Part shown: positions 13,064-17,303 of the stretch, piece by piece | Layout: each line of letters opens with the position of its first letter | Numbering within the stretch: position 1 is the stretch's first letter | Assembly (NCBI GenBank): GCA_044345405.1 | Contig: JBIJBE010000014.1 | Span: forward strand, 1-64,000 | DNA: 64,000 bases | From: Bdellovibrionota bacterium | GTDB lineage: Bacteria; Bdellovibrionota_C; UBA2361; OMII01 | Reading direction: 5' to 3' | Notes under the pieces: generated by a model | Told to the model about the DNA's origin: nothing | Seen by the model: the letters and a program-made list of their open reading frames with translations, nothing else | Databases searched by the model: none | Position numbers and translations under genes: made by a program

Positions 13064-14689
13064 TTGGCGATGTTTGATGCGCTTTTTGGTAACGGGGGTA
13101 ACGAAGTGGTTGAGAAAAGGGTAACGAACTCGGACGGTGAACGGAGCCAAGGGGCACGGGAAACTTCGCGATGGGAAGCTGCGCTCTCGATCCCTTCGCG
13201 CGGAGCGGCGTTCCGAAACATTGAGCATCTTATCGGACCCGAGAAAAATGGGGGCGCATTCCAGGAATCAGCGCTCAACTCGTCGAAAGGTGTCGCGAGC
13301 ACGTTGACCACCCTTTTTCGTCAGATCTCTCCCTACAGAATCCTCACTCCGGCTGAAGAACGACAGGTAACACGAGCGATTCAATCGAGTCGGCAGGAGT
13401 TGCTGGAGGGCTTGTTCTCGTTCCTGCCGGTCGCTCGGGAGGCGGTCGCTCTTCTTCGGGAGGCGACATCGGAGGGGGTTAGCTTTCATCATTCCCGAAT
13501 CTTGCATGTCAGCACAATCGACTCAGCGGCGGAGAAGCATGCCATTGTGGCCATAGCCAAGCGCAATCTTAAGACTATTGACGTGCTGATGAGTCGCTGC
13601 GACGAGCGATGGTTGACGAATGACGGGATGAGAGCGTCGGAGGCTCGGCGCACGGATATCGTCGCAAGCCTTATGAGCGACCGACAAAAGATCGCGACGC
13701 TCTTATCTGAGATAGCGATTCGTCCGGCGTTCCTCGCGGATTTTCTCTCTCAATTTGGAGGGCACGTCGCGACAGCGCGCGCCTTGTATGAGAGCGCTGA
13801 TGAGGGCCTAGATCCCAAGAAGCGAGGCGAGAGCGCGGCCGCGCTCAAGGACCACCTCGAAGCGTCACAGGAGAGCTACGAGACCTTGCTTGAGAGATGG
13901 GATAGAGCATCCCGTGCGCACAGCGACTTCCAGGTCGCGAAAGAGATACTCACCACTCGAAATGTTCGGCTCGCTATTTCCGAAGCTAAAAGATTCGCGA
14001 ACAGGGGGATAGCGCTGGAGGATCTGATTCAAGAGGCGATCAGCGGCCTCATTACCGCCGTTGATAAGTTCGACCCGGGGCGAGGGTGTCGGTTTAGCAC
14101 CTACGCGACGCCGTGGATCCGACAGGCGATGCTTCGATCTATCGATCACACCGCGCGTACGGTACGGATGCCCGGGCCAGTGCTTGGCGCTATTCGAAAA
14201 ATTGAGGACTTTCGCCAAGATTTTCGAGGGCGGCACGGACGCAATCCAAGCCCTGACGAGATAGCGGAGGGCCTGAAAGGAAAGAGCCCACATGTGCCCG
14301 TTACAGCGGCCTTTGTATGGAACACCCAGGTGGTATCACAGCCGATAATGTCCCTAGAAAGTCGGGATGTAGATAATGTGACCGGGGTGAACATGAGGGG
14401 ATCTATTATGGATACTCGCGAGTCCACGACGCGTGAAGTGGAGGATAGGAGCGAGGATGAGCGACGAAAGAGCGAGGTCGATCGGGTGCTGTCTAAAAAT
14501 CTCGATGAGAGACAGTGCCGAATTATTCGTTGGAGGTATGGGCTCGACGGAGATGAGCCGAGAACCCTTGAGGCGATTGGAGATCTCCTCTGTATTACGA
14601 AGGAACGAGTTCGGCAGATTGAGTTGAAGGCCATGGAGATTCTTGAGGCGTCGGAGTTGGAGGCAGTGCATAAGCGGGGGAGAGAGTAG
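13064..14689 (+). CDS. Divergent RpoD-like sigma-70 factor
   Basis: Region 2 (DLIQE...AVDKFD...FSTYATPWIRQA) and region 4 (TLEAIG...TKERVRQIE); long non-conserved region; no acidic region 1.1. Confidence 0.9.
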   Translation: MAMFDALFGNGGNEVVEKRVTNSDGERSQGARETSRWEAALSIPSRGAAFRNIEHLIGPEKNGGAFQESALNSSKGVASTLTTLFRQISPYRILTPAEERQVTRAIQSSRQELLEGLFSFLPVAREAVALLREATSEGVSFHHSRILHVSTIDSAAEKHAIVAIAKRNLKTIDVLMSRCDERWLTNDGMRASEARRTDIVASLMSDRQKIATLLSEIAIRPAFLADFLSQFGGHVATARALYESADEGLDPKKRGESAAALKDHLEASQESYETLLERWDRASRAHSDFQVAKEILTTRNVRLAISEAKRFANRGIALEDLIQEAISGLITAVDKFDPGRGCRFSTYATPWIRQAMLRSIDHTARTVRMPGPVLGAIRKIEDFRQDFRGRHGRNPSPDEIAEGLKGKSPHVPVTAAFVWNTQVVSQPIMSLESRDVDNVTGVNMRGSIMDTRESTTREVEDRSEDERRKSEVDRVLSKNLDERQCRIIRWRYGLDGDEPRTLEAIGDLLCITKERVRQIELKAMEILEASELEAVHKRGRE

Positions 14690-14746
14690 CGGCGCGGCCC
14701 ATCGTGCGAACCAGAGATCCGGGAGCGGCTGTGTTCAAAATCAATA

Positions 14747-15691
14747 TTAAATTGATTGGAATTGAGCGTTATCTCTGAGCATAGCGTTTAGGATAATGAT
14801 TGTTTTCCGCATAGCCGCGACCAAGGCTACCTTGGCAGCCTTTCCCCGGAGTCTAAGGCTTTGATAGTAGGACTTAATGTTTGGGTTGCATCGAATAGCG
14901 GTAAGAGCGCACATGTAGAGCGCGGACCGCACGGCACATCTCCCTCCCCAGATCCTTCGTTTGCCTCTACAAGAGGTGCCACTGTCATCGGCAAACGGAG
15001 CAACTCCAACAAGAGCCGCTATGTGTGATTTGGAGAGAGTTCCTAACTCTGGGAGGAACGCGATGAGAGCTGCGGCAGAGAGCTCTCCGACCCCTTTAAA
15101 GCCCCTGAGAAGAGAGAGTTTTGAGCCGAACTGAGAAGACTGCGACAGTTGCTTAATCTCAGCCTCAAGAGCCTGTCGTTCCTGGGTAAGCCATTTGATG
15201 TGACGTTTAAGGGAACGGATAAGCATCTTATCCTGAATGTCTCCGAGACGATTTTGCTCCTGGGTAATCATGCGTACGATGTCATTTCTTCGCGCCACAA
15301 GAGAGCGAAGCGCTTCAAGCTCCTTGCTGGGAGCTGGAGTGGGAGCAACCTCTACGGTCAGAGCGTAACGAGCAATGATACGGGCATCGATAGAGTCGGT
15401 CTTCGCAAGCTGTCCGACCCCTTTGGCGAAGTCTCTGATTCGTTTGGGATTAACTATGGCTATCGGTATCGAGAGCTCTGTTGCCACCCGAAAGAGGACC
15501 GCATGGTACTTCCCGGTCGACTCTACAACGAGGAACAGCTTGGGAAGCTCCTCCTGTAGTTTTAGCAACTTGGCTTTGATTGCTTGAGCCGTATTGCTGA
15601 TTCGAAACAAACGGCTATCCCTTCCAACGCAGCAATCAAGCTGAGCCTTTGAGACATCGATTCCTATCACATCACTTTCCGTGGTATTCAT
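14747..15691 (-). CDS. IS110 recombinase/transposase
   Basis: RuvC-like DEDD residues (GIDVSK, VESTG, KTDSIDA); Tnp domain serine in APFADDSG; AAGGAG RBS. Confidence 0.95.
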   Translation of the reverse strand: MNTTESDVIGIDVSKAQLDCCVGRDSRLFRISNTAQAIKAKLLKLQEELPKLFLVVESTGKYHAVLFRVATELSIPIAIVNPKRIRDFAKGVGQLAKTDSIDARIIARYALTVEVAPTPAPSKELEALRSLVARRNDIVRMITQEQNRLGDIQDKMLIRSLKRHIKWLTQERQALEAEIKQLSQSSQFGSKLSLLRGFKGVGELSAAALIAFLPELGTLSKSHIAALVGVAPFADDSGTSCRGKRRIWGGRCAVRSALYMCALTAIRCNPNIKSYYQSLRLRGKAAKVALVAAMRKTIIILNAMLRDNAQFQSI

Positions 15692-15719
15692 AGAACTCCT
15701 TGTAGGTGGTCCGGTCTGA

Positions 15720-15915
15720 GGGAGCTCGTCCTTGTACCAATACGAACTGTGGATATTACCTTATCCCGTTCAGGCGGCTGTTCGAGCTTTATCAGAAAGA
15801 ACCGAGGAGGCGTTCCTTGCTCCCATGCGCGTTTAAGCTAGGGCGGTCTCGAACTGCCTCCTCGGTGGACCCCTCTTTCTGCCTCTTCTCTCAAAGCTAC
15901 AAAATTAGGGTCACT
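15720..15915 (-). ncRNA. Bridge RNA of the IS110 element (ends approximate)
   Basis: Target loop closed by the 15856-15866/15801-15811 stem carries guides GACCGCCCU and GGGAG. Donor loop closed by the 15783-15788/15723-15728 stem carries guides ACAGCCGC and UACAAG. All match the actual flanks and junction. Confidence 0.88.
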
Positions 15916-15928
15916 ACCAACATACAAG

Positions 15929-15948
15929 GGCGGTCGTTCCCGACCGCC
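15929..15948. repeat. REP-like palindrome interrupted by the IS110
   Basis: GGCGGTCG-TTCC-CGACCGCC hairpin. Joined with GGGAG at 14721-14725 it resembles the copies at 40340 and 40406. Confidence 0.8.
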
Positions 15949-16071
15949 GTGTTAGGGCCCGTAGAGAAGGTCTTTCTCGATACGCGACATTTCCGGCGAC
16001 CGGCATGTTCCGAGTAGCGTCGAGGGAGGCCGATCACCCTCCCTGGTCGCGCACACGAGATTTTTACCAAC

Positions 16072-16100
16072 AAAAAAACCCCAGAGATCGCTCCCTGAGG
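16072..16100 (-). terminator. Intrinsic terminator of metK
   Basis: CCTCAGGGA-gcga-TCTCTGGGG followed by T7 on the minus strand. Confidence 0.75.
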
Positions 16101-16127: not shown

Positions 16128-17303
16128 TTACTTGATCGCCGCCTTGAGAGCGTCGACCTTATCTGTTCGCTCCCAGGAGAAGCTACCATCAGCGCCGGCC
16201 TCACGACCGAAGTGGCCGTAGGTGGAGGTCGCGCGATAGATAGGCTTCAAGAGGTCAAGGGAACGGATAATTCCGCGAGGTGTGAGATCGAAGACCTCTT
16301 GTACCGCGCTGGATATCTTCGATTCGGGAACCGTTCCTGTGCCGAATGTGTTCACGTACACCGAGACTGGCTTCGCGACTCCGATCGCGTAGGCTACCTG
16401 AACTTCGCACTTTCGCGCGAGGCCAGCCGCTACAACGTTCTTGGCGATGTAACGAGCGGCGTATGCCGCCGAGCGGTCCACCTTTGAGGGATCCTTTCCT
16501 GAGAAAGCTCCTCCTCCGTGACGAGCGTATCCACCGTAGGTGTCGACGATGATCTTTCGACCAGTGAGACCGCAATCACCAACTGGTCCACCGATAACGA
16601 ATCGACCAGTAGGATTGATGAGGTAGCGTGTTTTTGGCGTGAGGTAGGTGTCAGGGATTACCTTCTTTACGATCTTCTCAACGACGTACTCCTCTACATC
16701 TTTCAAGGAAACGCTCTCCGCGTGTTGCGTTGAGATAACGACGGTATCAACCGCGTGAGGACGTCCATCTCGATATTCCACCGTCACTTGGCTCTTCGCG
16801 TCGGGCTTCAGGAAACTCGATTTGTCTGAGTGCCGGGCCTTGGCGAGCGCCTTCACTAATTGGTGCGAGAGAGAGATCGGGAGGGGCATCAGCTCTGGGG
16901 TTTCATCGCACGCGAATCCGAACATGAGACCTTGATCGCCGGCGCCTTGTTCCTTGTAGAGTCCCTCGTGATCGTTGACACCCATACTGATGTCCGGGGA
17001 TTGCTGACTAATGAAGGTCATCACTGAGCAGCTCTGCGCGTCGAAGCCGAGCGCTGGGTCGTTGTAGCCGATATCGTGAATCACTGAGCGGGCGAGCTTC
17101 TCGTAGTTTACGTTTTGGGATGATGTAATTTCGCCGGCGAGGATCACCACGTCGTTTTTGACGAGGGTCTCGCACGCGACGCGCGCCGCCGGATCGTTCT
17201 TGAGGAAGGCGTCCAACATCGCGTCGCTTAATTGGTCCGCGACCTTGTCTGGATGTCCTTCGGAGACTGACTCGGAGGTGAAGAGGTATTGTTCTGTGGC
17301 CAC
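16128..17303 (-). CDS. metK: S-adenosylmethionine synthetase
   Basis: [28 protein letters not shown] motifs. Confidence 0.98.

Follow-up and report, generated by a model that had tools for sequence, protein, structure and literature searches.

The 64,000-nucleotide stretch of Bdellovibrionota DNA analyzed here (contig JBIJBE010000014.1, positions 1 to 64,000, forward strand; "the window") carries an intact IS110-group, IS621-like insertion sequence that very probably moves by bridge-RNA-guided recombination. All positions are window coordinates, the element is read on the minus strand, on which every feature given below lies unless stated otherwise, and the 3.59-Mb draft genome is referred to as G000. 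The whole insertion sequence occupies 14724..15926 (1203 bp, the right-end copy of the CT core included). Its boundaries were set by comparing the repeat that it interrupts with uninterrupted copies, and are exact to within the CT. A first-pass annotation made from the letters of this stretch had proposed a complete IS110 bridge recombination system at 14719-15948; this span does contain the element, but it also takes in about 20 nucleotides of flank.

The flank and end strings read in that annotation (GACCGCC-CT, TGTATG, ACAGCCG-CT and CCCGG) are all present on the minus strand where it had placed them. The left flank ...GGCGGTCGGGAACGACCGCC-CT, with its CT at 15928-15927, ends in the left target GACCGCC (15935-15929) and the left copy of the CT core (15927..15928). 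The element starts with TGTATGTT from 15926 (TGTATG, 15926-15921) and ends with ...GAACACAGCCG-CT (CT at 14725-14724), while the right flank CCCGGATC..., with the right target CCCGG at 14719..14723, continues the interrupted repeat. When other repeat copies are matched to the left flank by BLAST, the alignments break off at query position 1074 (window position 15927), the predicted boundary, and metagenome contigs of another repeat copy stop at the same position. Between these borders lie a long non-coding left end of 235 nucleotides (15692..15926), which encodes the predicted bridge RNA, the recombinase gene, and a right end of just 23 nucleotides past the stop codon (14724..14746), which holds the left donor ACAGCCG (14732-14726) and the CT core. 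There are no long terminal inverted repeats. The sole sub-terminal repeat is a 3-bp AAC...GTT that brackets the 14-bp donor, and a sub-terminal repeat of 2-3 bp is noted in the sections of PMC11208160 cited here.

According to the minimum-free-energy fold (-82.8 kcal/mol, z -3.38, with 1 of 200 shuffles as good), the left end consists of three parts: a 5′ stem-loop, and after it two stem-loops, each of which has a stem-closed internal loop. The 5′ stem-loop (GACCCU ... AGGGGUC, 15868..15912) is predicted from this fold only. The putative target-binding stem-loop (15802..15865), with a 10-bp outer stem and GUUC/GAAC around the internal loop, and the putative donor-binding stem-loop (15723..15788), with an AGCUCG/CGAGCU outer stem, a GAAC/GUUC inner stem and an apical hairpin, are indicated by both fold and covariation. 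Four candidate guides lie in the two internal loops. On the 5′ side of loop 1, the left target guide GACCGCCCU (15840..15848) equals the left target plus core in 9 of 9 positions, and on the 3′ side the right target guide GGGAG (15820..15824) is complementary to CT+CCC (5/5). Loop 2 is built in the same way, with the left donor guide ACAGCCGC (15774..15781), equal to the left donor plus the core C (8/8), on its 5′ side and the right donor guide UACAAG (15731..15736), complementary to CT+TGTA (6/6), on its 3′ side. The 5′ sides of the loops thus correspond to the top strand of the left target and left donor, and the 3′ sides are complementary to the core plus the right target or right donor. 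Next to the right target guide, on its 3′ side, lies C15819, and G15730 has the corresponding place next to the right donor guide; the former could pair with donor G7 and the latter with target C7, in line with the handshake positions as defined in the cited sections of PMC11208158. The two stem-closed loops, the four guides with their matches and the overall IS110 bridge RNA architecture (long left and short right end, CT on both sides, two guide-bearing loops) had all been proposed in the first-pass annotation, and our analysis arrives at the same picture.

The proposed structure is retained among relatives. In 8 close sequences, 96.0% of the proposed 28 pairs are paired, compared to 33.0-45.5% with the partners slid. 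A covariance model, R1, was built from these 8 sequences and searched in 97 sources with E up to 1. It gave 55 matches, 51 of which lie on the strand of the open reading frame (ORF) directly upstream of a recombinase gene, while the remaining 4 are weak and on the wrong strand. Over the 49 distinct rows of the R1 alignment, 92.6% of the cells are paired (32.7-51.2% when slid), double changes occur in 24 of the 28 pairs, and the observed values are reached by 0 of 500 shuffles; these figures lean toward the proposed structure because the alignment was fitted to it. Helix 1, belonging to the target stem-loop, is paired in 96.9% over the 49 distinct rows with double changes in 13 of 14 pairs, and helices 3-5 of the donor stem-loop are paired in 78.6-95.3%. 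The relatives share a common loop pattern, in which the 5′ side of loop 1 is variable and its 3′ side reads ...AGC, while loop 2 has AACAG... on the 5′ side and ...CAAGG on the 3′ side. This agrees with the remark in PMC11208160, in the part cited here, that conservation is poor in the first loop of IS110 non-coding RNAs (ncRNAs) and good in the second. The left donor guide ACAGCCGC is conserved in the 8 close orthologues. R1 gave no convincing match to the flanks of the genome's two other PF01548 genes (best E 0.042, partial). The other IS110-family genes in G000 are L117 (C49:29012-29434) and L118 (C25:7684-8109), with ORFs of 304 and 347 amino acids.

A link between guides and sites comes from sister elements. 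Protein-guided searches yielded 16 genome loci and 80 metagenome loci, and further copies were taken from same-genus genomes; L113 and L114 are duplicates of L008 and L010 and were left out. The sisters are 1199-1215 bp long, the 1215-bp figure including a run of 10 N in L010. Their donor ends (TGTATGTT..., ...ACAGCCGCT) are identical in 8 of 8 elements of 68-94% amino acid identity. At the left junction, 9 of 11 distinct sites equal the element's own left target guide in 9 of 9 positions, and they do so with four different guides: GACCGCC in the window and L033, GGTCGCC in L007, ACGGGCC in L008, L009, L010 and L035 (L009 with just 9 nucleotides of flank), and TCCCGCC in L119 and L120. On the right side, CTCCC accompanies the guide GGGAG in the window, in L007 (7/7 including an extension) and in L034, while CGGAG is accompanied by CTCCG in L008, L009, L010 and L035; L033 has one G·T. 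According to the first-pass annotation, other copies whose ends or targets are unrelated to the guides would speak against its reading. The outcome is in its favor: the donor ends of the sisters are conserved and their target guides covary with the flanks. The relation extends to distant relatives at about 40% amino acid identity: in the wider clade, the loop-1 5′ side and the upstream flank share an exact word of at least 8 nucleotides in 14 of 36 loci, compared to 38 of 1244 cross-pairings, and in most of the loci with such a word the match adjoins an element start resembling TTGTAT or TTGCAT.

The natural target of the element is the 3′ arm of a hairpin repeat that resembles a repetitive extragenic palindrome (REP), and this genome contains 76 perfectly matching sites. 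The flanks, when joined, give the empty site GACCGCC-CT-CCCGG, which had been predicted beforehand, and this 14-mer (GACCGCCCTCCCGG) has 17 exact uninterrupted copies in the draft genome and several dozen at no more than one mismatch. Nearly all of the near-exact copies lie within one repeat, ...AACGCGGCGGTCAGGAATGACCGCCCTCCCGGATCACGGG.... Of the 12-mer GACCGCCCTCCC (GACCGCC-CT-CCC), which the two target guides cover together, 33 contigs contain 76 copies, compared to 0.43 expected for a uniform 12-mer, and none of these 76 intact sites lies inside the window. The exact copies of both words belong to a single repeat family. At the insertion site, the REP-like hairpin GGCGGTCG-GGAA-CGACCGCC (15929..15948) has 8 pairs, 7 of them G-C. 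The genome consensus is GGCGGTC-AGGAAT-GACCGCC, with 7 bp, an N6 loop and a 3′ arm that is the left target; it is matched 252 times over both strands, and therefore, the motif being palindromic, by about 126 copies.

The repeat is often arrayed head to tail, with units recurring every 112-115 bp or so (for example C57:32061-32650, C61:92130-92320 and C23:54429-54700). Doublets are found as well: opposite the first hairpin stands a second one, GGCGACC-ATTCCT-GGTCGCC, and the two make up a larger palindrome. The commonest 7-mers before CTCCC in the genome are GGTCGCC (107) and GACCGCC (76). GGTCGCC serves as left target and guide in the sister L007 (81% amino acid identity; L007:1255-1500), an element that is not in this genome.

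The recombinase gene (14747..15691) encodes 314 amino acids without interruption and is the sole long ORF within the element; a ribosome-binding site, AAGGAG, can be read from the sequence at 15696..15701, 4 nucleotides ahead of the ATG. The protein matches PF01548 (DEDD_Tnp_IS110) with 1.6e-26 and 93.4 bits (cut-off 29 bits), PF02371 (C-terminal transposase domain) with 6.9e-18 and 65.3 bits (cut-off 21.3 bits), and the NCBIfam equivalog NF033542, "IS110 family RNA-guided transposase", with 203.6 bits (cut-off 140 bits). Its top relatives of solved structure are the IS621 transposase (8wt6, phmmer E 6e-32) and the ISCro4 transposase (9t56, E 1.6e-31), and the closest plasmid-borne relatives have at most about 43% identity. 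The residues Asp-12, Glu-57, Asp-99 and Asp-102 align with the DEDD residues Asp-11, Glu-60, Asp-102 and Asp-105 of IS621, and Ser-237-Gly-238 with Ser-241-Gly-242, which contains the conserved catalytic serine; the IS621 numbering follows the cited sections of PMC11208158 and is shifted by two relative to the PDB chain. Among 90 related ORFs, aligned in a fast mode, the same columns hold D in 81, E in 78, D in 80, D in 81, S in 79 and G in 77, the ORFs having been extracted as the longest ones, possibly in wrong frames in a few loci. Pfam, NF033542 and the IS621 alignment agree with the early assignment of a 314-residue recombinase that keeps DEDD and the catalytic serine.

How such an element would move can be sketched by homology with IS621. 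The element would excise as a circle, in which the right and left ends join at one CT. Circle formation would bring TTGATT in the right end (14739..14744), a candidate -35 box, to a distance of 17 nucleotides from TATGTT in the left end (15924-15919), a spacing that is given only in the circular form, and the resulting weak sigma-70 promoter would drive a bridge RNA of about 190 nucleotides from the left end. In the second internal loop of this RNA, ACAGCCGC and UACAAG would act on the circle junction ACAGCCG-CT-TGTAT. The DEDD/Ser recombinase would then exchange strands at the CT, so that the element is inserted with CT on each side. The junction motif TTGATT-N17-TATGTT, which matches the consensus in 8 of 12 positions, is found in 8 of 8 orthologues, and a promoter scan of the integrated state gave no promoter-like site.

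Several observations weigh against bridge-RNA-guided movement or add little in its favor. In the 8 close sequences, compensatory change is seen in only 2 pairs, both in one lineage, and the R1 alignment, apart from being fitted to the structure of the model, kept the 4 wrong-strand rows and some partial rows. The handshake bases are invariant among the relatives; they fit the model, but offer no covariation by which to probe it. An Rfam 15 scan of 14600-16100 with E up to 10 matched no family to the left end. The junction promoter motif is weak, its 8 of 12 positions lying under the 9/12 threshold of the scan, and its conservation is not independent evidence because the -10 box overlaps the conserved right donor. 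Two of the 11 sister sites match their own left target guide imperfectly: L034 (L034:330-575), with the flank CCCCGCC, in 8 of 9 positions, and L115 (L115:200-430), with the flank CCGCGCC, in 7 of 9. Finally, the single copy beside 76 perfect targets may mean that the element arrived recently or is tightly controlled, but it fits an inactive copy just as well. As for the Rfam scan, the best of three sub-threshold matches, sX15 (21.9 bits vs. a gathering score of 55 bits), lies on the strand opposite to the bridge RNA and was put down to chance; as an IS110 left-end RNA it is ruled out, and on plasmid pXCV183 it adjoins the upstream side of an IS3-family transposase.

Could the guide matches be incidental, the left end being made of captured REP and own-end fragments and serving only as a 5′ untranslated or promoter region? 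The genome is rich in GACCGCCCT (144 copies), and a REP fragment inside the element is conceivable. The four segments, however, sit at homologous positions of two internal loops that are supported by covariation, the target guides shift in step with the flanks in sisters that lie within other repeats, and the relation holds in relatives at about 40% amino acid identity, all of which makes this explanation highly improbable. Even less probable, to a degree that it can be practically disregarded, is an IS1111-group element with a seekRNA in its right end. IS1111 elements share the superfamily and the same Pfam domains, but as described in the sections of PMC11208160 cited here they have long right ends and sub-terminal inverted repeats of 7-17 bp, whereas the present right end measures just 23 nucleotides against 235 for the left end, and the only sub-terminal inverted repeat is the 3-bp AAC...GTT. 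Judged by these sequence features, the element belongs with the bridge-RNA insertion sequences of the IS110 group and does not qualify for the IS1111 group.

A more serious alternative, although still an unlikely one, is that the element is of this very kind but that the present copy, having arrived once or become fixed, is immobile because it is weakly expressed, encodes a defective protein or is controlled by the host. It is single-copy in the G000 assembly despite the 76 perfect target sites. Twenty lake-water metagenome runs contain the stretch, and 15 of these may be its source. Contigs bridge or cover the occupied site in 4 of 4 lake runs examined, among them X1, from which the present DNA possibly stems; in one run, the element and its left flank are spanned by a single contig with equal depth over both, contig depths not being taken as copy numbers. 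Against immobility stand the uninterrupted ORF with intact catalytic columns, the four guides, which all still match, and the multiple copies of sisters in same-genus genomes (at least 3 left junctions in G002, and several contig ends with right ends in G011). In addition, one contig may show an empty allele. This contig, from run X19, has a depth of 3.9 and a shorter side of 30 letters. It passes from 14725 to 15930 over a single intervening letter, so that 14726-15929 is skipped and the net loss amounts to 1203 bp, the value predicted for an empty site; there is one substitution at position 7 of the left target. Other REP copies of the genome align across the junction (53 nucleotides at 87% and 37 nucleotides at 92%); the contig is therefore possibly a paralogous repeat, and we regard it as a weak hint only. 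No syntenic empty site was readable in relatives: all 30 of them keep the metK flank, but the sigma-factor flank matched only weakly and on other contigs. Overall, we retain the reading of an insertion sequence that moves by bridge-RNA guidance.

In run X16, a loose end at window position 15790 belongs to a contig that switches into the left end of an L008-type sister, and two variants of the insertion sequence therefore co-occur in that community. A second X16 joint (15664 to 15769, side 21) was disregarded as too short.

The sisters suggest a further, tentative idea, which we consider possible rather than probable. The donor module is nearly constant (ACAGCCG-CT-TGTAT, 8/8), but divergence has taken the left target guides to different arms or variants of host REP hairpins; the elements may thus be a natural series of reprogrammed variants. 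Since they have the donor in common, variants residing together could direct one another's insertion in trans, and this would explain copies in sites that match the guide of a sister better than their own. L034 and L115 are closely related copies, and the L115 flank matches the L034 guide in 9 of 9 positions, compared to 7 of 9 for its own guide. The mismatches at L034 and L115 could stem from such trans-guidance by a co-resident variant, but also from off-target insertion or from drift of the guide after insertion. If the idea of a reprogramming series holds true, a single lake-water lineage would provide compact 314-residue recombinases with interchangeable bridge RNAs.

The insertion lies between two convergent genes, metK (16128-17303, minus strand) and a sigma-70-family gene (13064-14689, plus strand). 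Directly after metK, a GC-rich hairpin with a T-run (CCTCAGGGAGCGATCTCTGGGGTTTTTTTG, 16065-16100) resembles an intrinsic terminator of this gene, and the REP copy hit by the element sits between this terminator-like hairpin and the 3′ end of the sigma-factor gene. The sigma-70-like ORF encodes 541 amino acids and ends about 30 nucleotides from the right junction of the element. In same-genus relatives the sigma-factor gene does not adjoin metK, and the local gene order differs.

The mechanism was already described in 2024 and the protein falls into a curated family; the element is a further example, possibly already included in ISfinder or in the supplements of the IS622 preprint or of PMC11208160, a paper in which, according to the text cited here, thousands of ncRNA orthologues were predicted. 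Our understanding of the mechanism is unchanged. What the element adds is a bridge-RNA insertion sequence with clean borders, from a lineage little sampled for such elements, and a tidy natural case of REP-hairpin targeting. With its natural target family, its naturally retargeted sisters and a compact protein of 314 amino acids, it could reasonably be included when orthologs of programmable recombinases are screened; calling it a candidate programmable recombinase, as the first-pass annotation did, appears to be a reasonable reading of its sequence.

The closest mechanistic model is IS621 of E. coli, as described in the sections of PMC11208160 and PMC11208158 cited here. Both elements encode PF01548 and PF02371 with aligned DEDD and Ser-Gly residues, and they have in common a long left and a short right end, the CT core, bases compatible with a handshake directly 3′ to the right guides, a donor bracketed by a short sub-terminal inverted repeat, a promoter split over the circle junction (putative in our case) and a REP element as natural target. 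Likened by description, the order of the left-end RNA elements is also as for IS110 ncRNAs in PMC11208160. The differences lie in the specificities and in the distance between the proteins. The recombinase has 314 residues, compared to 326 in IS621, and is distant in sequence (phmmer E 6e-32 over the full length). The target is GACCGCC-CT-CCC, compared to the wild-type IS621 target ATCAGGCCTAC (PMC11208160), and the left donor ACAGCCG differs from that of IS621; neither of the two IS621 papers has, in its main text, the IS621 donor string quoted in the first-pass annotation. As sub-terminal repeat the element has AAC/GTT, compared to ATA/TAT in IS621, and the host differs from E. coli, the sister elements being found in records of metagenome-assembled genomes labelled Bdellovibrionota. 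ISCro4/IS622 bridge recombinases (PDB-code: 9t56; bioRxiv 10.1101/2025.05.14.653916, in the part cited here) belong to the same family and provide the second-best solved relative, likewise distant in sequence. With regard to the target, the best parallel is ISPpu10 of Pseudomonas putida, for which the cited part of bioRxiv 10.64898/2026.03.19.712850 describes a REP target in which the left target makes up the 3′ arm of a GC-rich stem-loop that arises together with a 5′ extension. The stem here has 7 bp and a 6-nucleotide loop, compared to about 5 bp and 4 nucleotides in ISPpu10. While such a hairpin is missing at L033 and shorter (4-5 bp) at L010 and L007, the arrangement of the present target, which here has the hairpin GGCGGTC-N6-GACCGCC, recurs at L008, L035, L034, L115, L119 and L120.

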